A stretch of DNA of 64,000 bases from Atribacterota bacterium (GTDB lineage: Bacteria; Atribacterota; Phoenicimicrobiia; Phoenicimicrobiales; Stramentimicrobiaceae), in assembly GCA_040767965.1 (NCBI GenBank), contig JAXGNR010000005.1:128001-192000 (forward strand). Direction: 5' to 3'. Under the pieces are notes generated by a model that was not told the origin of the DNA, made no database searches, and saw nothing but the letters and a program-made list of their open reading frames with translations. Positions 1 to 16,247 of this stretch are shown here, piece by piece. The position numbers and the translations under genes are program-made. Positions within the stretch are counted from its first letter, which is position 1. The number at the start of each line of letters is the position of its first letter.

Positions 1-974
1 TATTTCAAGTCACCCACAATAGGAATATCTATTTTTATATTCTTACTAATTTCTGCCGGGTCAATATCAACATGGATAAAGCTGGCTTTAGTGCAAAATA
101 ATTTTTTACTGCCAGTTACCCGGTCATCAAAGCGAACTCCCAGAGCAATAATCAAATCTGCTTCATTGAGAGACATATTGGCACAATAAAGGCCGTGCAT
201 TCCCAACATACCTAGAGATAGCGGGTGATTTTCTGGAAAACCACCTAACCCCATTAATGTTGTTGTTACAGGAATATTAGCTTTTTCAGCTAGTCCAAGT
301 AATTCTTTTGCTGCGTTAGAAGTAATAACTCCTCCTCCGGCGTAAATGACCGGTTTTTTTGCTTTTTGAATCGCATCAGCAGCTTTTTTTATCTGGTTTA
401 GATTTCCCTTTACAGTTGGATGATATCCTATGTATTTGTCTTTTTCAGGATAATGAAATTCTGTTTTTGCAATTTGAACATCTTTGGGTATGTCTATTAA
501 AACCGGACCAGGCCTTCCGGTTCTTGCCAAATAAAACGCTTCTTTAATTGTGTTCGCAAGATCTTTTACATCCATAACTAAATAGTTATTTTTGGTTACA
601 GGAAGGGTAATACCAATAGTGTCAACTTCCTGAAAGGCATCAGACCCAATAAGGGGTGATGCAACCTGGCCAGTAAAGGCAACGATGGGAATTGAATCTA
701 GATAGGCATTTGCCAGGCCTGTGACTAAGTTGGTAGCACCTGGACCTGATGTGGCTATACATACCCCGACATCTCCGGTGGCACGGGCATAGCCGTCAGC
801 TGCATGAATTGCTCCTTGTTCATGTTTTGTTAATATATGAGTAAAAGTAGCTTTTTCATGGATTGTATGATAAAGAGGTATTACAGCACCTCCAGGTATC
901 CCGAAAACTACCTGTACCTTTTCTCTTTTAAGACATTCAACGACAATTTCAGTCCCGCTTAATTTCAATCTCAT
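1..974 (-). CDS. ilvB: Acetolactate synthase large subunit (5' part; runs off window start)
   Basis: Manual minus-strand translation from ATG at 974 (SD AAGGAGG): [16 protein letters not shown]...FGIPGG...[18 protein letters not shown]...TSGPGATN...AFQEVD...[12 protein letters not shown]...LGMLGMHG...RFDDRVTG. Not in the ORF track because there is no stop in the window. Confidence 0.96.
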
Positions 975-1055
975 TTCCTCCTTCTGTTAATTAGTCTGAC
1001 TAACTTACTTTCTGTTCTAACTAATTTTTTTAAAATAATGCATCAGATCTTAAAT

Positions 1056-1330
1056 AAAAAAACTCTCATCCCTATCCTAATCATTTTAGATTAAAATAGG
1101 GACGAGAGCTCGTGGTACCACCCTAATTCAATAAAGAAAAAATATCTTTATACTTAATTTGGATAACGTATCATAAAATAAAAATATGCCATTGGCAATA
1201 TATGAATACGGTTGAATTTAAATCTATCAACTGAATATGAAAGTGATTTTCAGTAAAACTAAAAACTGCCATTTTGCACCAGGTACAGGCTCTCTTTAGT
1301 TTTTTGTTTTACTTACTCGCTTTTATAAAT
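1056..1330 (-). promoter_or_regulatory. T-box riboswitch (Ile specifier) upstream of ilvB
   Basis: Minus strand has stem I motifs AGTA, AGAGA and GGTGCAA, specifier GAAA-ATC-AC (ATC at 1247-1245), T-box AATTAGGGTGGTACCACG (1128-1111) followed by CGTCCCT, and terminator CTCTCGTCCCTAT...ATAGGGATGAGAG plus a T run. Confidence 0.92.
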
Positions 1331-1356
1331 AAGAAAATACTATTAAATTTCTACCG

Positions 1357-1385
1357 ATTTTACTAAAAAAAAATATAAATGTCAA
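1357..1385 (-). promoter_or_regulatory. sigma70-type promoter for the T-box/ilvB transcript
   Basis: Minus strand TTGACA (1385-1380) - 17 nt - TAAAAT (1362-1357). Confidence 0.75.
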
Positions 1386-1424
1386 AACAATTTTTATATT
1401 TTTTTATAATTTGTTTAAAAAAGC

Positions 1425-1453
1425 TTGACAGCTGATTTTATTTATGTTAACTT
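1425..1453 (+). promoter_or_regulatory. sigma70-type promoter for the aro operon leader
   Basis: TTGACA (1425-1430) - 17 nt - TAACTT (1448-1453), with extended -10 TG at 1445-1446. Confidence 0.72.
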
Positions 1454-1484
1454 TTATTTTAATCAAAAAATTAGGAGCAATAAG

Positions 1485-1571
1485 ATGCTAAGGAAACAAA
1501 GCCAAATTCAGTTTTATTTTAGCTATTTATATTTCTATTTTATTGGCGATGTTTGTGCCTTAGTATCATAA
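1485..1571 (+). CDS. Phe/Tyr-rich attenuator leader peptide, 28 aa (MLRKQSQIQFYFSYLYFYFIGDVCALVS)
   Basis: SD AGGAG at 1473-1477, ATG 1485, TAA 1569-1571. Codons 10-19 hold 4 Phe and 4 Tyr. Lies directly upstream of alternative hairpins and the aro operon. Confidence 0.88.
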   Translation: MLRKQSQIQFYFSYLYFYFIGDVCALVS

Positions 1572-1699
1572 GCAAAGCATATACAAAATAGCTAAAAAAG
1601 ATACCATAGGCAGAAACATCGAAAATGCCTATGGTATCTTTATATGTTAGTACATATAAAGGACTATAGGATTTTTTATACCTATAGTCCTTTTTTTTT
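1547..1699 (+). terminator. Attenuator: mutually exclusive hairpins ending in an intrinsic terminator
   Basis: 16-bp perfect stem 1597-1612/1626-1641. Antiterminator 1628-1646/1653-1670. Terminator AAAGGACTATAGG 1658-1670/CCTATAGTCCTTT 1681-1693 with T9 (1691-1699). 1547-1567 is complementary to 1600-1621. Confidence 0.88.
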
Positions 1700-1771
1700 A
1701 TTCTTTCTTATCTTTCTTATTGAAAGAATATTCAAGTTAAGTTTAATTACGAAATAACAGGAGGAAAATTA

Positions 1772-2149
1772 ATGTCAGTAAGAGGTATCAGGGGTGCAAC
1801 TACAGTAAATGATAATAGTAAAAAATCTATTTTAGAAGGAACTAAGGAATTGTTAATAGAACTGCGAACTGCAAATAAATTCGATACAGAAGATATTGTG
1901 ACCATCTTTTTTAGCTCAACTCCTGATTTAAATGCTGCATTTCCTGCAGCAGCAGCCAGAGAGCTTGGCTGGAATATGGTACCTCTTTTTGGTATGCAGG
2001 AGGCGAACATAAAGGAAGGCTTGAAGAAATGTATCAGAATCCTTATTCAAATAAACAGCAATAAATTACAAGCTGAAATGAAACATTGTTACCTGCATGA
2101 AGCCAAGGGATTGAGAAAAGATTTAATTGATAAAAAAGGGGAGAGATAA
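1772..2149 (+). CDS. aroH: Chorismate mutase, AroH class
   Basis: VRGIRGATT, TPDLNAAFPAAAAR, CIRILI, YLHEAKGLRKDL motifs; SD AGGAGG. Confidence 0.95.
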   Translation: MSVRGIRGATTVNDNSKKSILEGTKELLIELRTANKFDTEDIVTIFFSSTPDLNAAFPAAAARELGWNMVPLFGMQEANIKEGLKKCIRILIQINSNKLQAEMKHCYLHEAKGLRKDLIDKKGER

Positions 2150-2151
2150 AA

Positions 2152-3198
2152 ATGATATTAGTAATGGATAGTCATTCCGGGGAAGAAGAACTTAACAAGA
2201 TCAGCAATAAATTAAAAAGCATGGATTTTGAATTAGAGATAAGCAAGGGAAAAGAAAAGATAATAATTGGAATTATCGGAGATACAAGAAAGCTGCTTGA
2301 TTTTCCTTTTTATTCATATTCAGGAGTAATTGATGTTTTAAAAGTATTAAAACCTTATAAACTTGCCAGTCGGGAGTTTCGGGAAAAATCTACTATTGTT
2401 AAAATTGGGAATACTTTAATAGGAGAGCATGAATTGACTTTTATGGCCGGCCCTTGTTCTGTAGAAAATGAAGAGCAAATGTATGAAGCAGCTGCAGGTT
2501 TAAGCAAAATGGGCGTGAAAATCCTGCGTGGCGGAGCTTTTAAACCAAGAACTTCTCCATATAGTTTCCAGGGATTAGGGAAAAAAGGCTTGGAGATGAT
2601 GAGCGATGCTGCCAAAAAACATAATTTACTGGTAATTACTGAAGTTATGTCAATCGAGCAAATAGATATAATTACTCCTTATGCAGATATCCTGCAGGTA
2701 GGCGCCAGGAATATGCAGAATTTCATGCTTTTAAAGGAATTAGGTAAAATAAAGAAACCCGTTATGCTCAAAAGAGGGATGTCTTCTACAATCGAGGAAC
2801 TTTTATTGTCAGCTGAATACATATTATCAGGAGGCAATAAAAAAGTTATTCTTTGCGAAAGAGGTATTCGTACTTTTGAAACTTACACTCGTAATACCTT
2901 AGATTTAAGTGCAGTACCGGCAATTAAAGAATTAAGCCATTTGCCAATTATTGTTGATACCAGTCATTCTACTGGTCGCAAAGAATTAGTTTGCCCTATG
3001 TCAAAAGCAGCTATTGCCTGTGGCGCTGATGGATTAATGATCGAAGTGCACCCATATCCGAATCTTGCCCTGTGCGATGGAGCACAATCGCTTAGTTTAA
3101 ATGAATTTTCAGATCTATTAGCAGAAACTGAAAAGATAGCTCATGCTATGGGAAAAACATTTCATGCTGCCTGCAGCACTGCTGATACCATAGCTTAG
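2152..3198 (+). CDS. aroF: DAHP synthase type I-beta with N-terminal ACT-like regulatory domain, copy 1
   Basis: AGPCSVE, RGGAFKPRTSPYSFQG, GARNMQNF, LCERGIRTFE motifs. Confidence 0.95.
   Translation: MILVMDSHSGEEELNKISNKLKSMDFELEISKGKEKIIIGIIGDTRKLLDFPFYSYSGVIDVLKVLKPYKLASREFREKSTIVKIGNTLIGEHELTFMAGPCSVENEEQMYEAAAGLSKMGVKILRGGAFKPRTSPYSFQGLGKKGLEMMSDAAKKHNLLVITEVMSIEQIDIITPYADILQVGARNMQNFMLLKELGKIKKPVMLKRGMSSTIEELLLSAEYILSGGNKKVILCERGIRTFETYTRNTLDLSAVPAIKELSHLPIIVDTSHSTGRKELVCPMSKAAIACGADGLMIEVHPYPNLALCDGAQSLSLNEFSDLLAETEKIAHAMGKTFHAACSTADTIA
2503..2945 (+). repeat. 443-bp block identical to 3689-4131 (also 53-bp block 2998-3050 = 4184-4236)
   Basis: Base-by-base comparison by eye at constant offset 1186 showed no mismatch inside the blocks; flanks are diverged. 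Confidence 0.9.
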
Positions 3199-3337
3199 AA
3201 TAAATATTTAATAATTTAATAATAGGACAAATAAAAGGTTCTTTTCAAATTCAGAGAAGACCAGATAAGGATAGAAATTTTTTAAAATTAGATTAGTAAT
3301 AATATTAAAAAGACAGGTAGCCTAAAGGAGAAAAATT

Positions 3338-4375
3338 ATGGTAATAGTTATGGATGGAAAAACTGAAGAGAATAGTATTACAAAGATCAGCGATAAGTTA
3401 AAAAGCATGGGTTTTGAACTACAAACTATTAAAGGAAAAAATAAAATTGTGATTGGAATTATTGGAGATACCAGAAAGTTATTGAATTTTCCTTTTCATT
3501 CTTATGAAGGAGTTGTGGATGTTCTGAAAGTTTCTAAACCGTATAAACTTGCAAGCAGAGAATTTAGAGAATTGTCCACCATTATAAAAATTAACGATGT
3601 GCTTATAGGAGGTCAGGATACTGTTATTATGGCTGGCCCCTGCGCTGTAGAAAACGAAAAACAAATCTATGAAATTGCCGAGAATATCAGCAAAATGGGC
3701 GTGAAAATCCTGCGTGGCGGAGCTTTTAAACCAAGAACTTCTCCATATAGTTTCCAGGGATTAGGGAAAAAAGGCTTGGAGATGATGAGCGATGCTGCCA
3801 AAAAACATAATTTACTGGTAATTACTGAAGTTATGTCAATCGAGCAAATAGATATAATTACTCCTTATGCAGATATCCTGCAGGTAGGCGCCAGGAATAT
3901 GCAGAATTTCATGCTTTTAAAGGAATTAGGTAAAATAAAGAAACCCGTTATGCTCAAAAGAGGGATGTCTTCTACAATCGAGGAACTTTTATTGTCAGCT
4001 GAATACATATTATCAGGAGGCAATAAAAAAGTTATTCTTTGCGAAAGAGGTATTCGTACTTTTGAAACTTACACTCGTAATACCTTAGATTTAAGTGCAG
4101 TACCGGCAATTAAAGAATTAAGCCATTTGCCTGTCATAGTTGACCCCAGTCATGGAACCGGGAGAAGAGAAATGATTAATTCCATGTCAAAAGCAGCTAT
4201 TGCCTGTGGCGCTGATGGATTAATGATCGAAGTGCATCCGCATCGCGAAATGGCTTTAAGCGATGGTTCTCAATCATTAGACTTTGAAGCATTTAGAAGT
4301 TTGCTGATAGATTTAAAAAGGGTAGCTGATTCAGTAGACCGAACTGTTAATTATAATTATATATCATTTTTATAG
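3338..4375 (+). CDS. aroF: DAHP synthase type I-beta with N-terminal ACT-like domain, copy 2
   Basis: Same motifs as copy 1, plus DPSHGTG and ALSDG; SD AAGGAG. Confidence 0.95.
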   Translation: MVIVMDGKTEENSITKISDKLKSMGFELQTIKGKNKIVIGIIGDTRKLLNFPFHSYEGVVDVLKVSKPYKLASREFRELSTIIKINDVLIGGQDTVIMAGPCAVENEKQIYEIAENISKMGVKILRGGAFKPRTSPYSFQGLGKKGLEMMSDAAKKHNLLVITEVMSIEQIDIITPYADILQVGARNMQNFMLLKELGKIKKPVMLKRGMSSTIEELLLSAEYILSGGNKKVILCERGIRTFETYTRNTLDLSAVPAIKELSHLPVIVDPSHGTGRREMINSMSKAAIACGADGLMIEVHPHREMALSDGSQSLDFEAFRSLLIDLKRVADSVDRTVNYNYISFL

Positions 4376-4401
4376 GAAGTTTATAGGAAGGAAATAAACG
4401 T

Positions 4402-5697
4402 TTGGATAATATAGTAAATGGAATAAAAAATAAATTGCTAAAAAAAACTATATATATTCCCGGAGACAAATCAATTACTCATCGTGCAATTATTTTATCT
4501 TCTATTGCATCAGGTGAATCAATAATAAATAATTATTTAAATGCTTTGGATTGTCAGAGTACCATAAAATGCATGCAAAACTTAGGAGTAATAATTGAAG
4601 AAAAAGATCCCATGACATTAAGAATATTTGGCAAGGGGATTAAAGGACTGCAAGCCCCAAGCAATGTTTTGGATGTGGGAAATTCAGGAACAACGATAAG
4701 GCTATTAGCTGGATTACTTTGTGGACAGGAATTTACAAGCACTCTCGATGGTGATGATTCTGTCAGGAAAAGACCGATGGATAGAATCATTAAGCCATTA
4801 TCATTAATGAATGCTGATATAAATAGTTTGACAGAGAAGAAGTTTGCACCTCTGAAGATAATCGGAAAACCATTAAGGCCTATACACTATAGCATGCCAG
4901 TAGCAAGTGCCCAGGTGAAATCGGCAATACTGCTGGCTGGTCTTTATGCTGATGGAGAAACAATAATCAGGGAAAAAGAACAAACAAGAGATCACACTGA
5001 AAGAATGTTAAGTTTTATGCAGGTTGATATTAAAAGAAGGCCAAAAAAGATTATTACTATTACACCCGTAAAAGCACTTAAAAATGTTAATATTGATATT
5101 CCAGGAGATATTTCTTCAGCCGCTTATTTTCTAGCATTAGGGTGTGCCAGAAAAGATTCAGAACTAATCATTAGAAATGTAGGAATCAATAAAACCCGAA
5201 CAGGCTTTCTGGAGGTGCTCAAAAAAATGGGAGCTAACATTACAATTATAAATAAAAAAGTTATTTCCAATGAACCCAGGGCAGACCTCCTTTTAAAAGG
5301 AGGTCTTTTAAAAGGTATAAAGATTGATCAAAAAATAATTGCCAACATTATTGATGAACTGCCATTAGTTGCTGTTCTGGGGGCTCTAGCAAAAGGAAAA
5401 ACTATAGTTGAACAGGCCCAGGAATTAAGAGTAAAAGAAAGTGATCGCATTAAAGCAATTGTGGAAGGATTAGCAAGAATGGGGGCTAAAATCATCGAAA
5501 AAGAAGATGGATTTGAAATTATAGGTCCCGCAAAGCTAAAAGGAAATACGGTTAACAGTTATAAAGATCATCGTATAGCCATGTCTTTGACTATTGCCGC
5601 TTCCTATGCAGAAGGGAAAACAATTATTCAAGATGCACAGTGTATTGATATATCTTATCCCGGATTTGTTAACAGTTATCAGGAAGTAATGAAATAA
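4402..5697 (+). CDS. aroA: 3-phosphoshikimate 1-carboxyvinyltransferase (EPSP synthase)
   Basis: PGDKSITHRA, GNSGTT, SAQVKSA, RDHTERM, RVKESDR, DHRIAM; TTG start. Confidence 0.96.
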   Translation: MDNIVNGIKNKLLKKTIYIPGDKSITHRAIILSSIASGESIINNYLNALDCQSTIKCMQNLGVIIEEKDPMTLRIFGKGIKGLQAPSNVLDVGNSGTTIRLLAGLLCGQEFTSTLDGDDSVRKRPMDRIIKPLSLMNADINSLTEKKFAPLKIIGKPLRPIHYSMPVASAQVKSAILLAGLYADGETIIREKEQTRDHTERMLSFMQVDIKRRPKKIITITPVKALKNVNIDIPGDISSAAYFLALGCARKDSELIIRNVGINKTRTGFLEVLKKMGANITIINKKVISNEPRADLLLKGGLLKGIKIDQKIIANIIDELPLVAVLGALAKGKTIVEQAQELRVKESDRIKAIVEGLARMGAKIIEKEDGFEIIGPAKLKGNTVNSYKDHRIAMSLTIAASYAEGKTIIQDAQCIDISYPGFVNSYQEVMK

Positions 5698-5727
5698 ATT
5701 ATTAAAATATTAGGATTTAAAAAAAAG

Positions 5728-6582
5728 ATGAAATCTTTAATTTCTATTTTAGGATTAATAGGAGAGCATATCGAGAACAGCCTTTCTCCTTTTATTCACA
5801 AATCTTTTATCTCTGAGCATAGTCTGAATTATTGTTATTTGCCTTTCCAAATAAAAAAAGAGAATTTGGTAAAAGCAATTATTGGAGCAAAATCATTGGG
5901 GGTTAAAGGACTCAATATTACTTTCCCCTTCAAAGAAAAAACAATTTTGCTGTTAGATGAAATAGACTCAGATGCAGAAAATATCGGAGCAATAAATACT
6001 ATTCTAATTAAAAATAATAAAATATGTGGATATAATACTGATTGGAAAGGGTTTACGATTCCTTTAATTAAAAGAAAAATAAAATTAAAAAATAAAAATG
6101 CCATTGTTTTAGGGGCAGGTGGAGCAGCAAGAGCAGTTGTGTATTCTTTAGCAAAGGAAGAGTGTTCTGCTATCTCTATCTTTAATAGGAATCTGGAACA
6201 CGCTTTAGAAATAAAAAAAGATTTTCAAGGATTGTTTCCGTCATGCAAAATAAATATTTTTTCTTTAGATGATGGTGAATTAAAAAAGATAATAAAAAGT
6301 AGCATTTTGCTTGTTAACACTACTCCTTTGGGAAGCTGGTATTATCTTGAACAGTGTCCTTTGCCTGCAGAGATCGATTTGCCTCCCGAAATGTTTGTTT
6401 ATGATTTAATTTACAATCCGGACAAAACACCATTGGTGAAAATGGCTGAAATAAAAGGCAATAAAACAGTAAATGGCAAAGAAATGCTCGTATATCAGGC
6501 AGCAGAGAGTTTTTCCATTTGGACCGGATTATATCCAGGACAAAATACTATTAACCAAATTTTAGATGGTATAAAAGACTAA
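5728..6582 (+). CDS. aroE: Shikimate dehydrogenase
   Basis: SLSP, GLNITFPFK, GAINT, NTDWKG, GAGGAARA, DLIYNP. Confidence 0.95.
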   Translation: MKSLISILGLIGEHIENSLSPFIHKSFISEHSLNYCYLPFQIKKENLVKAIIGAKSLGVKGLNITFPFKEKTILLLDEIDSDAENIGAINTILIKNNKICGYNTDWKGFTIPLIKRKIKLKNKNAIVLGAGGAARAVVYSLAKEECSAISIFNRNLEHALEIKKDFQGLFPSCKINIFSLDDGELKKIIKSSILLVNTTPLGSWYYLEQCPLPAEIDLPPEMFVYDLIYNPDKTPLVKMAEIKGNKTVNGKEMLVYQAAESFSIWTGLYPGQNTINQILDGIKD

Positions 6583-6608
6583 GAAATAATGTAGTTAAGA
6601 GGTATATT

Positions 6609-7784
6609 ATGGTTTTAAGATTTTTAGATGCAGGAGAATCTCATGGAAGGTGTTTATTAGGAATAATTGAAGGATTTCCTCAGGGCGTTGAATTAAATCA
6701 GGAAAAAATAGATTATCAACTACAAAGGAGACAAGGTGGATTTGGAAGGGGAAGCCGGATGAAAATCGAACAAGATCACCTGGAAATCCTGGCTGGAATT
6801 ATAGAAGGGAAATCTATAGGAAGCCCAATCGGATTATTAATTAAAAACAAAGATTGGGAAAATAATGACCCGAAAAATATGAATGAGTTGACAATTCCCC
6901 GACCCGGACATGCTGATTTAGCAGGGTTAATTAAATATAATCTGGATAACTATCGACCAATTCTAGAGCGAGCGAGTGCCAGAAATACAGCGATGCGTGT
7001 TGCAATCGGAGCTATTGCTCAGCAATTGCTGGAATATTTTTCGATCTATTCATTTAGTCATGTTATCAGCATAGGTAATATTTCTGTTAAAAACGCAATT
7101 TTACAAAAAATAAAAAAAGAAAATTCTGTTGATTCATTGACAGAATTGAAAGATAAGATTAACAAATCAGCTGTTTTTTGTGTAGATGATGAGACATCTC
7201 AAGGAATGGTTCAGAAAATAAAACAGGCAGCTGAAGAGGGCAATTCTTTAGGGGGGCAATTTGAAATAATAGTAAGAAATGTTCCTATTGGGTTGGGTAG
7301 TCATGTTTTCTGGGATAGAAGAATAGATTCGCGCATTGCAGGTGCTCTAATGAGCATTCCCAGTGTGAAAGCTGTAGAAATAGGGGAAGGAATAAAAAGT
7401 TCTAAAAATAAAGGATCTATAGCCCATGATGCGATTTATTTCCAGAAAAACAAACAAAACTCTAATTATTATCGTAAAAAAAATTGGGCTGGAGGGATTG
7501 AAGGTGGAATAACAAATGGGGAGAATATAGTTGTGCGAGTTTACCTGAAGCCAATACCTACACTCTTGCAACCTCTTCCTTCAGTAGATATCAAAACAAA
7601 AAAAGAGATCAGAGCTGATTACCAAAGATCAGATATCTGTGTTGTTCCTGCAGCTAGTGCGGTAGGAGAGGCAGTAGTAAATTGGGAACTGGCCACAGTT
7701 TTTATAGAAAAATTTGGAAATGATTCTTTAAGAGAAATAGAAAATAACTTTAATAATTATCTGAAAAGGATACAGGAGTGTTAA
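6609..7784 (+). CDS. aroC: Chorismate synthase
   Basis: AGESHG, PRPGHAD, LERASAR, GGIEGGITNG, KPIPTL, RSDIC. Confidence 0.96.
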   Translation: MVLRFLDAGESHGRCLLGIIEGFPQGVELNQEKIDYQLQRRQGGFGRGSRMKIEQDHLEILAGIIEGKSIGSPIGLLIKNKDWENNDPKNMNELTIPRPGHADLAGLIKYNLDNYRPILERASARNTAMRVAIGAIAQQLLEYFSIYSFSHVISIGNISVKNAILQKIKKENSVDSLTELKDKINKSAVFCVDDETSQGMVQKIKQAAEEGNSLGGQFEIIVRNVPIGLGSHVFWDRRIDSRIAGALMSIPSVKAVEIGEGIKSSKNKGSIAHDAIYFQKNKQNSNYYRKKNWAGGIEGGITNGENIVVRVYLKPIPTLLQPLPSVDIKTKKEIRADYQRSDICVVPAASAVGEAVVNWELATVFIEKFGNDSLREIENNFNNYLKRIQEC

Positions 7785-8299
7785 GTAAAAATATTATTAT
7801 TACCGGATTTATGGGGACAGGCAAAAGTACTGTCGGTAAATCTTTGGCGTTTATCTTGAAAAAACAGTTTTTGGATATGGATTCTCTGATTGAAGAAAAA
7901 GAAGGGAAAAGTATCACTGATATTTTTCAACTAAAAGGAGAAAATTATTTTAGAAATTTGGAAAAAAATATCTTAAAAGAAATTATAATGGGAGAAAATA
8001 TGGTTATTGCAACTGGAGGAGGGGCTTTACTGGAAGAAGATAATTTTATATTAGCCAACAAAGAAGGATTGGTTGTATTGCTAAAGGCAACCCCGACTGT
8101 AATATTTTCAAGATTAAAAAAGGATAAGAACAGGCCTTTGCTGTCAGGTGATGATAAATTAAGAAAAATCATCGATTTGATGGAAAAAAGAAAAGAGAAA
8201 TATGACCGTTTTGCTAATTCCATAGATACTTCAGATTTTACAGTAGAACAGATTGTTGGTGAAATAATAAAAATCTATCGGAGAAAATATAATGAATAA
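7778..8299 (+). CDS. aroK: Shikimate kinase
   Basis: GFMGTGKST P-loop, GENYFR, ATGGG, RPLL. Confidence 0.95.
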   Translation: MLSKNIIITGFMGTGKSTVGKSLAFILKKQFLDMDSLIEEKEGKSITDIFQLKGENYFRNLEKNILKEIIMGENMVIATGGGALLEEDNFILANKEGLVVLLKATPTVIFSRLKKDKNRPLLSGDDKLRKIIDLMEKRKEKYDRFANSIDTSDFTVEQIVGEIIKIYRRKYNE

Positions 8300-9383
8300 A
8301 ATAGAATTAAAATTTCAAAAACAATATGATTGTAAAATAATAATAAAAAAGGACATTCTAACAAAAATTGACCATTATCTAATTCCACTGCTGACAGGAA
8401 ACCATATTGTAATAATTACCAATAATTTGGTAAAGAATCTTTATGGAGATAATATCAGTAAAATAATTTCTAAGAAAAATATCACTGTTGACTTTATAGA
8501 AGTGCCTGATAGTGAAAGCAGCAAATCATTAACAGTTGCAGGTATGATTTATGATGAATTATTACAATTAAAAGCAGACAGGTCTACTGTTTTAATTACC
8601 CTGGGAGGAGGCGTAATTGGCGATTTAGGTGGATTTATTGCATCTACTTTTATGAGAGGAATTCCTTTTATACAAATACCTACTACATTGCTGGCTCAGA
8701 TTGACAGTAGCATAGGAGGAAAAGTTGCAATAGATCATTTTAAGGCAAAAAATATAATAGGGAGTTTTAATCACCCTATTGCCAATTTTATTGATCCGAA
8801 TGTTTTGATAAGTTTACCAGTCTCTCATCTGAAAAATGGAATTACTGAAGCAATTAAAATTGCCATAATATTTTCTCCAGATTTTTTCACCTGGATTGCT
8901 GAAAATCTAGATAAAATATTGCAAAAAGATGAAGAGTCGTTAGGTTTTTTGATAAAAGAAGCTGCTCAATTAAAAATTAAGACTGTACTGGAAGATCCCT
9001 GGGAAAAAAATCAACGACATTTTCTTAATCTGGGACATAGTATCGGACATGCAATCGAATCTGTTAAGGGATATGAGACTATTTCTCACGGAGAGGCAGT
9101 TGCCATGGGGATTGTGCTGGAAACAAGAATTGCTTACCAGAAAAGAATATGTAGCCTGGAAACCAAAGAAAAAATTGAGAATATTTTTCAAAAAATAGAT
9201 ATCCTTCCAGAAGTATGTTTGGATAAAGAAACTCTGGGGAAATATTGGAATTCATTGCTTTTAGACAAGAAAAATAAAAACGGAATAATTCGTTTTGTAT
9301 TGCCTGAAAAAATAGGTAAAGTGCAAATGTTTCAGCCGATATATAAAGAAGACCTGGAATTTGCATTTAACTCGCTTAGATAA
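8292..9383 (+). CDS. aroB: 3-dehydroquinate synthase
   Basis: GGGVIGDL, PTTLLAQIDSSIGGK, LNLGHSIGHAIE, HGEAVA, DKK. Confidence 0.96.
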   Translation: MNKIELKFQKQYDCKIIIKKDILTKIDHYLIPLLTGNHIVIITNNLVKNLYGDNISKIISKKNITVDFIEVPDSESSKSLTVAGMIYDELLQLKADRSTVLITLGGGVIGDLGGFIASTFMRGIPFIQIPTTLLAQIDSSIGGKVAIDHFKAKNIIGSFNHPIANFIDPNVLISLPVSHLKNGITEAIKIAIIFSPDFFTWIAENLDKILQKDEESLGFLIKEAAQLKIKTVLEDPWEKNQRHFLNLGHSIGHAIESVKGYETISHGEAVAMGIVLETRIAYQKRICSLETKEKIENIFQKIDILPEVCLDKETLGKYWNSLLLDKKNKNGIIRFVLPEKIGKVQMFQPIYKEDLEFAFNSLR

Positions 9384-9405
9384 AAAAGAAAAAAGAGGGA
9401 AAACA

Positions 9406-9849
9406 ATGAAAATTAATATTATTCATGGTCCGAATTTAAACCAGTTAGGCAAGAGAAAGAAAGAGCATTATGGAGTATTATCTCTGGAAGAAATTAACTG
9501 TCTGCTAGAGAAAAAAGCTGCCCAGCTTAATATTCAATTGAAAATATTGCAATCAAACTATGAAGGGAAAATAATAGATTTTATTCAACACTCTTCCCAA
9601 GAGGCTGATGGTTTGATAATTAATCCAGGTGCTTTCACTCATTATAGTTATGCGATTAGCGATGCTTTGGAAGACTGTAAGATTCCTGCTATTGAAGTGC
9701 ATCTGTCCAACATATATTCCCGTGAAGATTTTAGAGCAAAATCGGTAACAGCAAGATCCTGCACAGGTCAAATTGCTGGTTTGGGATATCATGGGTATTT
9801 GCTGGCAATAGAAGGAATGTATTTTTTAATTAATGGGAGGAAAGCTTGA
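9406..9849 (+). CDS. aroQ: Type II 3-dehydroquinate dehydratase
   Basis: HGPNLNQLG, INPGAFTHYS, IEVHLSNI; start moved to ATG 9406 (MKINII). Confidence 0.95.
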   Translation: MKINIIHGPNLNQLGKRKKEHYGVLSLEEINCLLEKKAAQLNIQLKILQSNYEGKIIDFIQHSSQEADGLIINPGAFTHYSYAISDALEDCKIPAIEVHLSNIYSREDFRAKSVTARSCTGQIAGLGYHGYLLAIEGMYFLINGRKA

Positions 9850-9863
9850 AAAAGGAGTATTTA

Positions 9864-10742
9864 ATGAATGAAGATAGTGATTTTAGTGAATTTAAAAGGA
9901 TTACAATTATAGGTTGTGGTTTGATCGGAGGTTCAGTCGGTCTTACTTTAAAGAAAAAAAAATACGCAGTTGAAATTGTCGGAATTGATCATGAACAAAT
10001 AATTGAGAAAGCGTCCTCGTTAGGAGCGATCGACTGGGGAACTACAGAAATTAGAAAAGGTGTTGAAGGAGCAGATCTGGTAATCCTTGCTACACCGGTA
10101 AAAGAAATAATAAAACTCATGACAGAGATTAAACCTTTTGTATCAGCTAATTGTCTTGTTACTGATACAGGAAGCTCTAAAGAAAGGATTCTAATAGAAG
10201 CGCAAAAAATATTTTGTGATAAATGTGATTTTATAGGGGGCCATCCAATGGCTGGACTGGAAAATGGGGGAATTGAATTTGCTCAAGCCGGTTTATTTTC
10301 TAACAAACCTTTCATTTCTGTTGAAAAAAAAGGAAATAAGCTGCAAGCCAGACAAAAAATGACTAATTTCATAAAAATGATAAATGCTATAGAAATAAAG
10401 TTAAGAGCTATTGAACATGATCAAATTATTTCCCTGGTCAGTCATGTTCCACAATTAGTTGCTATTATTTTTACTAACTTGTTTGGCCAGCTAATACAGA
10501 AAGATTTTTCTGAAGACTGCTATAAAATAGGGGGTAAAGCTTTTAACGAAATGACCAGAGTAGCAAGCAGTCCTTTTTCCATGTGGGGAGATATCTATGA
10601 AACTAACAACATATGGACAGTTGATTCTATTGAAAAAATAGAAGAAATGCTAAAAAAAATAAAAGAAAAAATAATTAAAAATCCAGAAGAGTTGAAAGAG
10701 GACTTTTTAGCGGCAAAATATTTTAAAGAGAAAATGTCTTAA
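9864..10742 (+). CDS. tyrA: Prephenate dehydrogenase (no C-terminal ACT domain)
   Basis: GCGLIGGS, DTGSSK, GGHPMAG, HD...SHVPQ, TRVA; ATG 9864 follows SD AAGGAG. Confidence 0.92.
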   Translation: MNEDSDFSEFKRITIIGCGLIGGSVGLTLKKKKYAVEIVGIDHEQIIEKASSLGAIDWGTTEIRKGVEGADLVILATPVKEIIKLMTEIKPFVSANCLVTDTGSSKERILIEAQKIFCDKCDFIGGHPMAGLENGGIEFAQAGLFSNKPFISVEKKGNKLQARQKMTNFIKMINAIEIKLRAIEHDQIISLVSHVPQLVAIIFTNLFGQLIQKDFSEDCYKIGGKAFNEMTRVASSPFSMWGDIYETNNIWTVDSIEKIEEMLKKIKEKIIKNPEELKEDFLAAKYFKEKMS

Positions 10743-10824
10743 AATTCTATTAATTTTAAAATATTAAAATAAATAATTACATTAATTAAAAAAATTAAAA
10801 GAATAAAAGAAGAGGTAGTAAATT

Positions 10825-11706
10825 ATGGATGAAAATAGTGATTATGAATATAAGATGAATAAAAAAATAGCTTTACAAGGAGAAATCGGGTCTTTTAGTG
10901 AAATGGCTGCTTTGAATTATTTTGGTTCTGCAATTGAAATATTACCCTGCAACAGTTTTGAACAGGTTAGCCAAAAAATGAAAGAAGGCATGGCAGAATA
11001 TGCGATATTACCAATTGAAAACTCTCAAACTGGTAGCATTAATAGTGTTCATGATATTCTTTTAAATGAAGATTTATTTGCAAATGGAGAGATTGCTCTA
11101 AAAATAGAACATTGTCTTATTACTCATTATGACGTTGTTCAGGAGCAAATTGAGAAAATCTTTTCTCATCCTCAGGCTTTAGCCCAATGTGAAAAATATC
11201 TTTCGCAAAAATTTCCGAACAGGCATATAATCCCAGTGTATGATACTGCAGGCAGCATCAAGCAAATCAAGGAATCGCATGATGTCAAAGCAGCCGGGAT
11301 TGCCAGCAGCAGGGCAGCAGCTTATTACGAAATGCAAATTATGGAAAAGGGAATAGAAGATAACCCGTTTAACTATACTAGATTTTTGGTTTTATCCAGA
11401 GATAGAAAGGAAAACAGAGAAAATAATAAAACATCTATTATATTTGCTGTAGTCAGTGTTCCGGGAGCAATTTACAGATGTTTGCAAGAATTTGCAATCA
11501 GAAATATTAATTTATCCAGATTGGAGTCCAGACCCAGCAGGAGAAGACCATGGGAGTATGTTTTTTATATGGACTTCGAAAAAGGAATACAGGACGAGGT
11601 ATCACAAGAGGCTTTAAATGCTCTTAAAAGTCATACAACATTTGTGAAAATTATCGGCTCATATCCTTCAACAGCAAATCCTTTAAATATGATCAGCTCA
11701 GTATAA
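10825..11706 (+). CDS. pheA: Prephenate dehydratase (PDT + ACT, no chorismate mutase domain)
   Basis: PIENSQTG, SHPQALAQC, NYTRF, LESRP, IIGSY. Confidence 0.94.
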   Translation: MDENSDYEYKMNKKIALQGEIGSFSEMAALNYFGSAIEILPCNSFEQVSQKMKEGMAEYAILPIENSQTGSINSVHDILLNEDLFANGEIALKIEHCLITHYDVVQEQIEKIFSHPQALAQCEKYLSQKFPNRHIIPVYDTAGSIKQIKESHDVKAAGIASSRAAAYYEMQIMEKGIEDNPFNYTRFLVLSRDRKENRENNKTSIIFAVVSVPGAIYRCLQEFAIRNINLSRLESRPSRRRPWEYVFYMDFEKGIQDEVSQEALNALKSHTTFVKIIGSYPSTANPLNMISSV

Positions 11707-11947
11707 AAAAGAAATAAAATTGATAAAACTAAATAACTTAATTTTATAATTATTTATTTAAAGATTAATTCAACTTTTCAGACGTTTCAATGTTCTTCAC
11801 TTTAAGCCGGCATGGATTTTTTATTATAAATGTTGTAATATATAGAACATCATCATAATATTTAATTATTGTTTTTTCTGTGTTATTATTATTTTTATAT
11901 ATTTAGATGAAAAAGTTAATACATTTTCGGGGGAATTTTTATTTCAA

Positions 11948-13663
11948 ATGAATACTAATAATCATGAATCTAAAGAAAAAGTTAATTTTATTCAAGCAAT
12001 TATAGATCAGGATAAAGAAAAAAATAAATATAATGGCAGAATTCATCTGCGCTTTCCTCCTGAACCAAACGGATATTTACATATCGGGCATGCTAAGTCC
12101 ATTTGTTTAAATTTTGGCTTAGCAGAAAAAAATAATGGGCTTTGTAATTTACGCTTTGATGATACAAATCCATCAAAAGAGGATACAGAGTATATTAATT
12201 CAATTATTCGTGATGTGAAATGGTTGGGATACGATTGGGGAGACCGGCTTTTTTATGCTTCAGATTACTTTGACAGAATGTATGAAGATGCTGTTTCTCT
12301 TATTAAACAAGATAAAGCCTATGTATGCGATTTAAGCCCGGATGAAATCAGGGAATATAGAGGGACTTTTATTAAAACAGGGGAAAACAGCCCTTATCGA
12401 AATAGATCTATAGAAGAAAACTTAAAGTTATTTCAACAGATGAGAGAGGGCAAGTTTGAGGATGGCTCACGAGTGTTAAGAGCTAAAATAGATATGAACT
12501 CACCCAATCTGAATATGCGTGATCCTGTTCTGTACAGAATAGTAAAAAAATCACACCACCGAACCGGAAACAAATGGCATATTTATCCTATGTATGATTA
12601 TGCTCATCCTTTAGAAGACTATTATGAGAACATAACTCATTCAGTATGTACATTGGAATTCGAAGACCACAGGCCTTTGTATGACTGGATTCTTTCAAGT
12701 CTTTATTCAACTGAACTTCCTCAGCAAATCGAGTTTGCCAGACTAAACCTCAGCAGGACTATCATGAGCAAGAGAAGACTTAGAGTATTGGTAGAAGATG
12801 GTTATGTAAATGGATGGGATGACCCTCGTCTGCCTACCATTTCAGGGTTACGAAGAAGAGGCTATACCCCTGAGGCAATTAGAAAATTTTGTGATCGAAT
12901 TGGAGTAGCAAAAACAAACAGTGTGGTTGATATTCAATTTTTGGAACACTGCATAAGAGAGGATTTAAATAAGAGTGCACAAAGAGTGATGGCTGTTTTA
13001 AATCCGTTAAAACTTATAATTGATAATTACCCGGAAGATTATACAGAAGACCTGGAATGTGAAAATAATCCTGAAGATCCTCAGGCCGGAACCCGCAAGG
13101 TCTCCTTTTCCAGAATTTTATACATTGAAAGAGAAGATTTTCATGAAGATCCTCCCAAAAAATATTTTAGACTGGCTCCAGGGAAAGAAGTAAGATTAAA
13201 AAATGCCTATATTATTAAATGTCATAACTTTGTAAAAGATGAACAAACAGGTGAGGTTAAAGAAATACATTGTTCTTATGACCCGGAAACCAAAAGTGGC
13301 GGTCCTGGCGCCAGCAGAAAAGTGAAAGGAACTTTACATTGGGTTTCTGCAAAACATGCTGTAAAAGCTGAAATCCGTTTATATGACTATCTTTTATTGG
13401 AAGAAAGAGATAATAAAGGAGAAGAGGGAAAAGACAATTTTACTGATTGCATTAATAACAATTCTCTGGAAATATTAAAAGACTGTCTGGTAGAACCAGG
13501 TTTGACCAATGCTTTTAAAGAAGATAAATTCCAATTTATGCGAAAAGGTTATTTTTGTTTTGATCCAGACTCAAAGCCTGACAAGTTAGTTTTCAACCGT
13601 ATTGTTACTTTACGAGATAGCTGGGAGAAAATAATAAAATCAAACCAGATTGGTGATAAATAA
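11948..13663 (+). CDS. glnS: Glutamine--tRNA ligase
   Basis: [41 protein letters not shown]. Confidence 0.96.
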
Positions 13664-13700
13664 TGCCTTTATATTACTATAAATACCAGGTTAAATATAG

Positions 13701-14861
13701 ATGAAGATTGCCTTTTTTACCAATTGTTATAAGCCTTTGATAAATGGTGTAGTCAGCAGCATTATTTCATTAAAAACTGCCTTTGAGAAAAAAGGTCACA
13801 GTACTTATATTTTTGCCCCAAAAGTAGAAGGATATACCGATGAAGAAGAAAATATATTCAGATACCACTCTGTTAATTTAACAAATCGGGTAAAATATCC
13901 TATCGCCATCCCTCTTTCGATGAGGGCGAGTAAGGTTATTAATGAATTTAAACCAGATATAATTCATCTTCATCATCCTTTTGTGTTAAGCATGCCTGCT
14001 ATTATGTATGCGGAAAAATTAAAAATACCTAAAATATTGACTATTCACACTCAATACGAAAGGTATGCATATTATATTTCTCCAATACCGCAGGCTATTA
14101 TACAGGAGGCAATTAAAAGAATAATATTTCACCTGGCAGATAAAATTGATGTTATAACTACACCTTCAGAGTCTATGAAAAATTTTATTAATAAGTACAA
14201 AATAAAAAAAGATATAGTTGTTGTACCTAATGCCATTAATTTAAATCTTTTTCAGGACAGGGATCAACAGGAATGCCATTCATTAAAAGAAAAATTTGAG
14301 ATAAAAGAGAATGATACTACTATTCTTTATGTAGGTAGAATTTCTCTGGAAAAAAATATAGAAAAAATCATTCAAGCTGTTGCACTGATTCATGAAAAAG
14401 GTATCATAAACATAAAATTATTATTGGTTGGCGACGGAACAGCTCTGGAACAGATGAAAAAGCTGGTTAAAACATTAAAAATAGATAAAATGGTTCATTT
14501 TGCTGGTGCCGTAAAGAATGAGGTTATTAAAAGTTATTATCAAATATCAGATATATTTGCTTTTACATCTACCTCTGAAACATTTGGACTGGTGATAATT
14601 GAAGCAATGGCTTCAGGTTTACCGGTATTGGCAGTTAAGGCTCCAGGTGCTGTGGATATTATCAGTGATGGTAAGGATGGTATCTTATCTGAAGATGATG
14701 TTGCTAATTTCGCAATTCATTTAGAAAAGTTAATAGTTGATAAAAATTTTAGGAATTATCTTTCTCAAGCTGCTCTTTTAACTGCAAAAAAATATAGTTT
14801 TGATTCTGTTGCTGATAAAATGTTAGAAGTATATCAAAGATTAAGCATGAACCGTAAATAG
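13701..14861 (+). CDS. Glycosyltransferase family 4 (diacylglycerol glucosyltransferase-like)
   Basis: YKPLINGVVSS, HTQY, VGRISLEKN, SETFGLVIIEAMASG. Confidence 0.88.
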   Translation: MKIAFFTNCYKPLINGVVSSIISLKTAFEKKGHSTYIFAPKVEGYTDEEENIFRYHSVNLTNRVKYPIAIPLSMRASKVINEFKPDIIHLHHPFVLSMPAIMYAEKLKIPKILTIHTQYERYAYYISPIPQAIIQEAIKRIIFHLADKIDVITTPSESMKNFINKYKIKKDIVVVPNAINLNLFQDRDQQECHSLKEKFEIKENDTTILYVGRISLEKNIEKIIQAVALIHEKGIINIKLLLVGDGTALEQMKKLVKTLKIDKMVHFAGAVKNEVIKSYYQISDIFAFTSTSETFGLVIIEAMASGLPVLAVKAPGAVDIISDGKDGILSEDDVANFAIHLEKLIVDKNFRNYLSQAALLTAKKYSFDSVADKMLEVYQRLSMNRK

Positions 14862-15059
14862 TTTAGGATTACATTTCTGCCAATCTTTATATTAATAGCT
14901 ATTTAAATCTATTTGAGATTCTCAAATAGATTTCTAAATTTTAAGGTAGAAAGTTTATTTATTACATTTTTTAAGCTAAAATCTTTTAGCGTAATACATA
15001 GTAAAAATATTATATTTTATGAAAATATAAATATAGAACATAATAATGGAGGAAAACGA

Positions 15060-16247
15060 ATGGTAAAACCATTACAGGGAATTCGCGTTTTGGATTTAGG
15101 GCATGTTCTTTCTATGCCGACTTGCACCATGCAACTAGCTTCTCTGGGAGCAGAGGTAATAAAAATAGAAAGACCTGGATTAGGCGATGACGCAAGAAGA
15201 TTTGGTCCTTTTATCAATGGAGAAAGCGGATATTTTATAAGTATTAATTGCAATAAAAAAAGCATAACTTTAGATTTAAAAAAAGAAAAAGGGAAAGATA
15301 TTTTTAAAGAATTAGTAAAAAAAGTTGATATAGTTACGGAAAATTTCAGACCTGGTACTATGGCTAAAATGGGTTTAGATTATGAAAATTTAAAAAAAAT
15401 TAATCATGGAATAATATATGCTTCTATAAGTGGTTTTGGCCATAAAAGTGTTGATAAAAAAAGGCCCGGTTATGATATTATAGCTCAGGCTGTTGGAGGG
15501 ATTATGGCTATTACCGGTTACCCGGATAGCCCGCCTACCAGAACCGGCTTTTCAGCTGCTGACATTTTTTCCGGAACATTTTCTACTATTGGAATTTTGG
15601 CAGCTTTGAGATACAGGGATATTACCGGAGAAGGGCAATCTATAGATATAAGCATGATGGATTCAGCTGTTTCAGTTCTTGAAAATGCTCTGGTAAGATA
15701 TACTTCCACCGGGATTTTACCAACCCGTATTGGCAGTCAACATCCTTCAATTACTCCTTTTGATGTATTTGAAACTAGAGACGGATGGGTTGTAATTGCC
15801 ATTGGAAACGACTCTCTTTGGAAAAAATTTTGCAAAGCAGCTAATCTGGAAATACTGCTTGAAAACCCTAATTACAGTACAAACGAAAAACGTACAGAAA
15901 GTTACCAGCAATTAAAGCCGATTATTTCCAAATGGACAAAAAATATTTCTTCTGAATCTATAATCAGTCAATTGAATGAAGCAGGGATTCCAGTTGGTAA
16001 TGTTAATAATGTAGAAGATATAATCCATGACCCTAATATTAAATTAAGGGATATGCTGGTAGATATAGAACATCCTGTAGCGGGAAAAATGACCATTGTC
16101 AATTCACCAATAAAATTGTCAAAAAGTGAAAATGTTGATGTTTCTCCTGCTCCATTACTGGGAGAACACACAACAGATGTTTTGAAAACTATACTGGGAT
16201 TATCACAAGAAAATATTGATAAATTAAAAAAAGAACAGATAGTTTAA
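15060..16247 (+). CDS. CaiB/BaiF family III CoA-transferase
   Basis: PLQGIRVLDL, LGAEVIKIE, NKKSITLDLK, ENFRPG, GYDIIAQA, APLLGEHT; start moved to ATG 15060 after GGAGG. Confidence 0.92.
   Translation: MVKPLQGIRVLDLGHVLSMPTCTMQLASLGAEVIKIERPGLGDDARRFGPFINGESGYFISINCNKKSITLDLKKEKGKDIFKELVKKVDIVTENFRPGTMAKMGLDYENLKKINHGIIYASISGFGHKSVDKKRPGYDIIAQAVGGIMAITGYPDSPPTRTGFSAADIFSGTFSTIGILAALRYRDITGEGQSIDISMMDSAVSVLENALVRYTSTGILPTRIGSQHPSITPFDVFETRDGWVVIAIGNDSLWKKFCKAANLEILLENPNYSTNEKRTESYQQLKPIISKWTKNISSESIISQLNEAGIPVGNVNNVEDIIHDPNIKLRDMLVDIEHPVAGKMTIVNSPIKLSKSENVDVSPAPLLGEHTTDVLKTILGLSQENIDKLKKEQIV

Follow-up and report, generated by a model that had tools for sequence, protein, structure and literature searches.

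A candidate Phe/Tyr leader-peptide attenuator in front of the aromatic amino acid operon in two families of Atribacterota

Results

Gene content of the locus

The window, i.e. the whole stretch of 64,000 nt analyzed in this study, contains a cluster of eleven genes located on the same strand, to which the following names were assigned:

1772..11706, plus strand: aroH (chorismate mutase), two DAHP synthases, aroA, aroE, aroC, aroK, aroB, aroQ, tyrA and pheA (NCBIfam names)

The first gene encodes a chorismate mutase of the AroH type, while the last two genes encode a prephenate dehydrogenase and a prephenate dehydratase. This is the gene content which an initial annotation of the DNA had claimed for an 11-gene operon ending with tyrA and pheA. 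The largest gap between the genes comprises 139 nt and no convincing internal terminator was detected. The common strand, the short gaps and the lack of such a terminator suggest that the eleven genes are transcribed into a single mRNA. Judged from the spacing of the genes, all of them may be controlled by the leader site described below. The two DAHP synthase genes are arranged in tandem (2152-3198 and 3338-4375), lie 139 nt apart and share 78% identity with each other.

The upstream region was also inspected for known regulatory RNAs. On the minus strand, a match to the T-box family RF00230 was found at 1095-1329 (71.3 bits, which falls short of the gathering score of 93; E value 4.6e-14). 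It possesses its own terminator (1108-1063) and precedes ilvB, the gene of the acetolactate synthase large subunit (3-974, minus strand). A promoter-like site of the T-box (1385-1357) is situated back to back with the promoter of the aro leader. This match on the opposite strand, running from 1329 to 1095 ahead of ilvB, was the sole T-box match, and RF00230 gave none on the plus strand. Rfam cmscan of the positions 1-16000 at E ≤ 1 did not reveal any plus-strand match near 1460-1700. At the same threshold, the Rfam leader families (Phe, Trp, His, Leu, Thr, leu/phe) and the riboswitches were without a match on this strand.

Promoter and leader ORF

Upstream of aroH, the following features were identified, which belong to a leader RNA and a leader ORF unannotated in the window:

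1425..1430, plus strand: -35 hexamer TTGACA of the leader promoter (from the sequence; kept in relatives)
1445..1453, plus strand: extended -10 region (TGt TAACTT; TAACTT itself at 1448-1453), with a 17-nt spacer ending in TGt
1473..1477, plus strand: Shine-Dalgarno sequence AGGAG of the leader ORF, 7 nt 5′ of the ATG
1485..1571, plus strand: leader ORF of 28 codons plus TAA, MLRKQSQIQFYFSYLYFYFIGDVCALVS (ATG at 1485, TAA at 1569-1571)
1512..1541, plus strand: control codons F Y F S Y L Y F Y F (codons 10-19), four of them for Phe and four for Tyr

The Shine-Dalgarno sequence AGGAG and an ORF at 1485-1571 with four Phe, four Tyr and no Trp codons had been predicted by the initial annotation, and all of them are present at these positions. 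Transcription of the leader probably starts near 1460, and a promoter of the sigma-70 type would give rise to a leader RNA of about 240 nt. The leader ORF is separated from the first structural gene by an intrinsic terminator (1658-1699). A simple promoter/terminator scan of the region did no better than chance and overlooked this terminator on account of its 10-nt loop.

The genome was also searched for further leader peptides, using as criteria a Shine-Dalgarno sequence, a start codon, at least four codons of one residue within eight and a perfect-stem terminator within 220 nt. Seven candidates were obtained: the aro leader, three ORFs in alternative frames, and the sites C16:15287, C4:175101 and C4:438742. 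Three Leu-rich leader-like candidates were discarded, as they represent alternative reading frames within the 3′-terminal parts of genes for RNA-binding proteins. Three paralogous RRM-type genes located outside the window (C4:79993, minus strand; C5:46975; C5:111673) each carry a strong terminator right after their stop codon.

Alternative pairings of the leader RNA

The leader RNA can be divided into six segments, whose positions and partners are as follows:

1484..1503, plus strand: segment 0, start-codon region and first six codons; pairs with segment 1 (from the minimum free energy fold and kept complementarity)
1545..1567, plus strand: segment 1, final codons of the ORF; partner is segment 0 or segment 2 (duplex with segment 2 computed for 1547-1567)
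1597..1621, plus strand: segment 2; partner is segment 1 (helix 1:2) or segment 3 (helix 2:3)
1626..1646, plus strand: segment 3; partner is segment 2 or segment 4 (antiterminator 3:4)
1653..1670, plus strand: segment 4, serves the antiterminator as 3′ arm and, with 1658-1670, the terminator as 5′ arm
1681..1699, plus strand: segment 5, forms the terminator's 3′ arm (1681-1693) and continues into a run of T up to 1699

The four chained pairings between the segments 1 to 5, which had been claimed before, were all recovered in the window with duplex energies from -18.8 to -24.5 kcal/mol. Helix 1:2 (1547-1567/1600-1621) yielded -23.5 kcal/mol and helix 2:3 (1597-1612/1626-1641), which consists of 16 perfect base pairs, -24.5 kcal/mol. 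For helix 3:4 (1628-1646/1653-1670) a value of -18.8 kcal/mol was calculated, and for the terminator helix 4:5, whose 13-bp stem (1658-1670/1681-1693) is followed by nine T, -20.0 kcal/mol. When folded as single hairpins, the energies amounted to -18.5 (0:1), -21.5 (1:2), -24.2 (2:3), -18.8 (3:4) and -17.3 kcal/mol (4:5).

Distribution of the leader among relatives

The region 1420-1780 of the window was used as BLAST query against 60 relatives and the own genome (61 genomes in total). Matches at E ≤ 0.001 were obtained in 36 of the 61 genomes, and 30 of the 60 relatives matched at E ≤ 4.1e-9. They occurred in 15 of 21 genomes of the family of the window (f1) and in 20 of 30 genomes of a sister family (f2) belonging to the same order of the Atribacterota, while none of nine genomes from four other families of the phylum gave a match. 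Thus, the leader is conserved in two families of one order. In four out of five genomes from other families, no leader is present upstream of aroH, which there directly follows another gene. The fifth of these genomes (L090, G052:C14) contains approximately 100 bases read as N just upstream of aroH.

A 20-nt degenerate motif of segment 1 was additionally scanned over 185,579 species genomes (one genome per species). The scan yielded 62 stretches, 38 of which contain a leader ORF; most of the latter are titled Atribacterota. One stretch (L026) harboring the hairpins of segments 2 and 3 together with a degenerate ORF was left out. The 23 other stretches were rejected as leaders: they belong to unrelated taxa, many lie within longer open frames, and leader features were not seen in them, so that they look like chance matches.

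Downstream of 36 leaders we found aroH in 26 cases, a DAHP synthase gene in six cases and aroE in one case; in three cases the gene could not be told. In the relative with aroE (L013/L061, G002:C156), this gene and not aroH directly follows the leader, indicating that the order of the genes downstream of the leader varies. For all further comparisons the leaders were aligned by MAFFT (alignment A1). It comprises 39 distinct leaders, after removal of 17 exact duplicates between two sources and of L034 (150 nt). In each of the 34 leaders with enough upstream sequence, TTGACA is followed, after a spacer of 17 nt, by a hexamer resembling TAnnnT. Since the ORF, the promoter and all helices are conserved in the 39 distinct leaders, a chance occurrence of the element is excluded.

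Coding signature of the leader ORF

An open frame reaching from a start codon with a Shine-Dalgarno sequence to a stop at the end of segment 1 was found in each of the 37 rows of A1 left intact by contig ends; in two rows of the alignment the stop is located four codons past the end of segment 1. The ORF varies in length between 26 and 33 codons and every change of length keeps the frame. Start codons are ATG in f1 and GTG in f2, with the exception of one f2 sequence starting with ATG.

Within the ten codons in front of segment 1, 280 out of 380 codons specify Phe (136) or Tyr (144) in 38 leaders. Hence, the Phe/Tyr-rich short ORF, whose conservation in related genomes the initial annotation had proposed to check, is indeed kept. 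Codons for both amino acids exist in each of the 39 leaders and Trp codons in none of them. Among the third bases of the codons in the control run there are 271 T, 103 C, five A and one G, i.e. a pyrimidine in 374 of 380 codons, in a genome with a G+C content of 33%. T-rich DNA alone would not avoid A at third positions, and we therefore dismissed the objection that the Phe and Tyr codons might be merely a by-product of such DNA. A pyrimidine at this position avoids Leu and stop codons. The third commonest codons of the control run are those for Asn (AAT/AAC; 55 of 380), which often alternate with Phe codons (FNFN; columns 60-100 of A1). These signs are indirect and consistent with each other, and they indicate that the leader ORF is probably translated.

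Covariation of the helices

Each of the two alternative states was evaluated over the 39 leaders. For the terminator state (2:3 and 4:5), 95.3% of the cells were paired, compared to 37-57% in controls with slid pairings, and ten pairs showed changes on both sides. The antiterminator state (1:2 and 3:4) disclosed 96.3% paired cells, compared to 34-49% in the slid controls, and seven pairs changed on both sides. As the structure had been read from a member of the alignment itself, the comparison is biased in its favor and against the slid controls. In both states the covariation score was reached by none of 500 shuffles, a control which ignores the relatedness of the leaders, most of the two-sided changes separating f1 from f2 and few being independent events. 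The terminator helix 4:5 on its own was paired in 98.5% of the cells and contains four pairs with changes on both sides. Five columns of A1 (132-178-210-269-293), one in each of the segments 1 to 5, switch together between the families (A/G, U/C, A/G, U/C, A/G). Smaller, independent covariation events were detected in L016, L012, L011, L023, L063 and L074. Covarying stems in relatives had been named as a check of the proposed relay, and all four helices from 1:2 to 4:5 covary in the 39 leaders.

The outcome was different for a further pairing, a 12-bp helix between the control codons (1517-1528) and the positions 1586-1597, which the initial annotation had included. The helix exists in the window (-10.8 kcal/mol) and is not conserved in the 39 leaders: 54.4% of the cells were paired, a value lying within the range of the slid controls (45-68%). 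This pairing is specific to the sequence of the window and was not retained as part of the model.

A sixth segment at the start codon

In the minimum free energy fold of the free leader, segment 1 is paired, over its whole length, with the positions 1484-1503. The relay proposed by the initial annotation comprised five segments and missed this partner (segment 0). Six segments make up three hairpins (0:1, 2:3, 4:5) versus two (1:2, 3:4). Complementarity between segments 0 and 1 was found in all 37 evaluable leaders, with duplex energies between -13.6 and -23.8 kcal/mol. Compared to shuffled upstream sequences, the mean z score was -4.5, and in 26 of the 37 leaders none of 200 shuffles gave a value as low. 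In f2, the homologue of segment 0 overlies the Shine-Dalgarno sequence, the spacer and the GTG start codon; there the N-terminal peptide differs and the complementarity stays. Within the families, helix 0:1 was paired in 99.1% (f2) and 91.8% (f1) of the cells, while slid controls reached 29-53%. Nearly all changes in this helix are one-sided and compatible with wobble pairing; a change on both sides was found for one pair out of 37, in one sequence of f1, and for none in f2. The data indicate that helix 0:1 is well supported as kept complementarity, yet not proven by covariation.

Folding of the leader with a ribosome in place

Constrained folds, which the initial annotation had suggested as a further check, were calculated with all RNA 5′ of the ribosome blocked and the A site positioned at the Phe codons 1512, 1521, 1530 or 1539. 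For transcripts ending at 1675, in which segment 4 has been made and segment 5 is absent, the stalled ribosome gave helix 1:2 (13-18 bp) together with helix 3:4 (18 bp) as the minimum free energy structure. With a ribosome at the stop codon, helix 2:3 was held and helix 4:5 followed as soon as the transcript reached 1699. These folds describe the geometry and the thermodynamics of the relay. Folds in which only 28 nt were blocked by the ribosome were discarded, as helix 0:1 closed around the ribosome, a physically implausible structure, and these folds were repeated with all of the 5′ RNA blocked.

When segment 5 was included, the terminator state was the minimum free energy structure of both the free full-length RNA and the stalled RNA. 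As the terminator is the optimum once segment 5 is present, read-through would have to rest on kinetic trapping during transcription. It would then depend on the order of folding in the course of transcription, as in other attenuators.

From these features the following course of events is proposed. When charged Phe- and Tyr-tRNAs are plentiful, the first ribosome would reach the stop codon (1569-1571) and cover segment 1. Segments 2 and 3, and subsequently segments 4 and 5, would pair, and the RNA polymerase would stop near 1697-1699. If either tRNA is scarce, the ribosome would stall at 1512-1541 and hold segment 0 off segment 1, which could then capture segment 2 as it emerges. Upon formation of this helix, segment 3 would pair with segment 4, so that the terminator would be blocked and the genes from aroH to pheA transcribed. 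Without translation, helix 0:1 would form and would also hide the start codon; owing to this pairing, untranslated RNA is predicted to terminate and not to be read through. The OFF state would accordingly be composed of the helices 0:1 and 2:3 and of the terminator 4:5 with its T run, the ON state of helix 1:2 and the antiterminator 3:4. That the position of the ribosome decides between 1:2 plus 3:4 and 2:3 plus 4:5 had been claimed by the initial annotation, and this idea is supported by the covariation, the codon signature and the constrained folds. Stalling, termination and the choice of the amino acid that acts, as well as an "OR gate" for Phe and Tyr, are what we infer from them. A search for RNA runs from which 3′-ends could be read gave none: no dataset containing the sequence is registered as RNA, and the contigs of the one that was aligned, probably DNA, yielded five short pieces, of which one covers 1541-1795, and carry no information on RNA ends.

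Paralogous leaders with different codon bias

In f1, a single leader of mixed Phe and Tyr content precedes an operon which comprises tyrA, pheA and two DAHP synthase genes in tandem. Several f2 genomes carry two leaders, as seen from locus pairs within one assembly and from the genomes G063 and G064, each of which gave two strong matches. In the f2 genome G061, the leader located before aroH is followed by aroH, one DAHP synthase gene, aroA, aroE, aroC, aroK, aroB, aroQ and tyrA, while pheA lies on another contig between ilvC and leuA. There (L087, G061:C9:22000-31000, minus strand), pheA resides inside a cluster for branched-chain amino acids with the order ilvB, ilvN, ilvC, pheA, leuA. The gap of 188 nt before this pheA contains short direct repeats (aattggt/aattggag units), and a Phe-rich ORF was not seen in it. 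The second leader of the f2 genome G029, the one stand-alone locus inspected beyond its first gene, precedes a lone DAHP synthase gene, after which a gap and unrelated genes follow.

The leaders of the window's group contain on average 4.2 Phe and 4.9 Tyr codons (n = 15). Leaders of f2 situated before aroH contain on average 3.5 Phe and 5.7 Tyr codons (n = 13), whereas 5-6 Phe and 2-3 Tyr codons were counted in the six f2 leaders before a separate DAHP synthase gene, which probably stem from one or two events; this pattern of bias is suggestive rather than statistical. The stand-alone DAHP synthase of G029 and the operon copy of G061 are 80% identical, compared to an identity of about 60% across the families. 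According to these values, the DAHP synthase gene was duplicated independently in f1 and f2.

It is possible, and we suggest it with some reserve, that the codon content of the leader acts as an evolvable "address label". The leader would have been duplicated in f2 together with the DAHP synthase gene and the copies would have diverged into a Tyr-biased and a Phe-biased one, while f1 has a single mixed leader. In E. coli, the entry into the pathway is subject to isozyme-specific control by way of aroF and aroG. If the paralogous leaders are functional, such isozyme-specific control of pathway entry would be achieved purely by leader codons. Mixed, Tyr-biased and Phe-biased leaders all occur within this family, a clean natural setting in which to study how an attenuator derives its specificity from its codons.

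Discussion

We consider it highly likely that the element upstream of aroH is a ribosome-mediated (leader-peptide) transcription attenuator, which very probably turns on the aromatic operon when charged Phe or Tyr tRNA is scarce. Its response might nevertheless be restricted to one amino acid, e.g. Phe, the other codons being tolerated filler. This we regard as unlikely, since codons of both types are kept in 39 of 39 leaders and since their ratio tracks the controlled genes, Tyr-rich leaders standing before operons that end with tyrA and Phe-rich leaders before separate DAHP synthase genes, which is hard to reconcile with an inert codon type. On the other hand, the relatives L012 and L016 possess Phe-biased leaders (6 Phe, 3 Tyr) although these are located ahead of aroH. 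In addition, the aroR leader with its Phe-Tyr-Phe triplet ahead of the aroF operon of C. glutamicum (Neshat et al. 2014) is described as responding to Phe limitation and not to Tyr limitation (PMC11802643). Because aroR, the only tested analogue, was according to this description unaffected by Tyr availability (PMC11802643), dual sensing by the Atribacterota leader is not assured.

Two other explanations dispense with a stalled ribosome. The switch might be set without translation, by a TRAP-like protein bound to the UAU/UUU run, by uncharged tRNA or by a small ligand, the ORF being incidental. An in-phase run of UWY triplets could in principle serve as a repeated binding site, the region is rich in U and A, and RNA helices alone are no proof of translation. 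Yet no Rfam family, be it the T-box, a riboswitch or a known leader, was matched on the plus strand at E ≤ 1. Moreover, both families have kept a Shine-Dalgarno sequence, a start codon and a stop that coincides precisely with the end of segment 1, although the start codon has moved; all changes in leader length are in frame, and 374 of 380 codons end with a pyrimidine. Taken together, this makes such a switch very improbable. Still fainter is the prospect that a constitutive terminator is joined to a conserved structured RNA, such as a small RNA or a stabilizing element, whose state is unregulated. The thermodynamic optimum of the full leader is indeed the terminated form, but covariation was detected for each of two helix sets that exclude each other, more than one static structure would call for, and an essential pathway would be shut down by a constitutive terminator ahead of the sole shikimate operon. 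We therefore favor the ribosome-mediated attenuator.

Leader-peptide attenuation as such is a textbook mechanism. The his leader (hisL) of Salmonella and E. coli and the multi-hairpin leu, thr and ilv leaders are built from six segments forming three versus two hairpins, and their RNA is terminated when it is not translated. The Atribacterota leader resembles hisL by its six segments, by a last hairpin that is either terminator or antiterminator, and by the predicted termination of untranslated RNA. Unlike in hisL, its control codons are placed in the loop between segments 0 and 1 and not inside the first segment. Segment 0 overlaps the start codon in f1, or the Shine-Dalgarno sequence and the start codon in f2, so that helix 0:1 would shut off translation of the leader. 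Furthermore, the leader encodes two amino acids instead of one. The pheL and pheM leaders of E. coli are proteobacterial, sense Phe only, belong to short operons and have a four-segment layout. The Atribacterota leader differs from them by its combination of Phe and Tyr codons, by its six segments and by the lack of a match to the Rfam Phe leader.

In the published descriptions, runs of Phe codons in the leaders of pheL-pheA and pheM-pheST control termination before Phe-related genes of E. coli (PMC11802643, PMC3082878). The initial annotation knew of no described Phe and Tyr leader over a whole shikimate pathway. This statement has to be narrowed, as a Phe/Tyr leader before a DAHP synthase is known from C. 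glutamicum according to PMC11802643; a description of the Atribacterota family itself was not found. Compared by description, aroR and the Atribacterota leader have in common adjacent Phe and Tyr codons before a DAHP synthase operon and a transcription that increases, by prediction in the Atribacterota leader, upon ribosome stalling, while they differ in the phylum and in the number of codons, one Phe-Tyr-Phe triplet there and eight Phe/Tyr codons within ten here. Moreover, the genes of the entire pathway, together with tyrA and pheA, seem to be united in the Atribacterota operon. A further parallel is the uORFC-13-1 motif upstream of aroF in Acholeplasma, a predicted Phe uORF next to an intrinsic terminator (PMC8632094). 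It is reported from Acholeplasma and unidentified environmental sequences only (24 representatives), and the text describing it speaks of "at least one" Phe codon and leaves Tyr unmentioned (PMC8632094). As far as this text description goes, both elements consist of a uORF with Phe codons and a terminator before a DAHP synthase gene.

The attenuator survey of Naville and Gautheret (PMC2965389) contains no mention of aromatic, tyrosine, phenylalanine, aroF or aroH, and a study on Shewanella (PMC2659441) merely cites an old hypothesis on Tyr-tRNA attenuation of aroF. Our literature searches did not reveal any paper describing the Atribacterota Phe/Tyr leader family. A search for leader-peptide attenuation in Atribacterota likewise gave no description, the sole co-mention being an unrelated review on bacterial surfaces. 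The mechanism is classical; what merits attention is the phylum, the relay of six segments, the first of which covers the translation start, and the Tyr- and Phe-biased paralogues.

For the Atribacterota, a phylum that is widespread and has hardly any cultured members, the leader offers a testable regulatory element of aromatic amino acid synthesis. Annotation would profit from a covariance model based on the 39 leaders. A working attenuator needs the first ribosome close behind the RNA polymerase, and the conservation of the leader thus argues for coupled transcription and translation. A cultured member of the Atribacterota is described as having a membrane around its nucleoid (PMC7736352). 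If our interpretation is true, transcription and translation would be tightly coupled in a phylum whose cultured member possesses such a nucleoid membrane.
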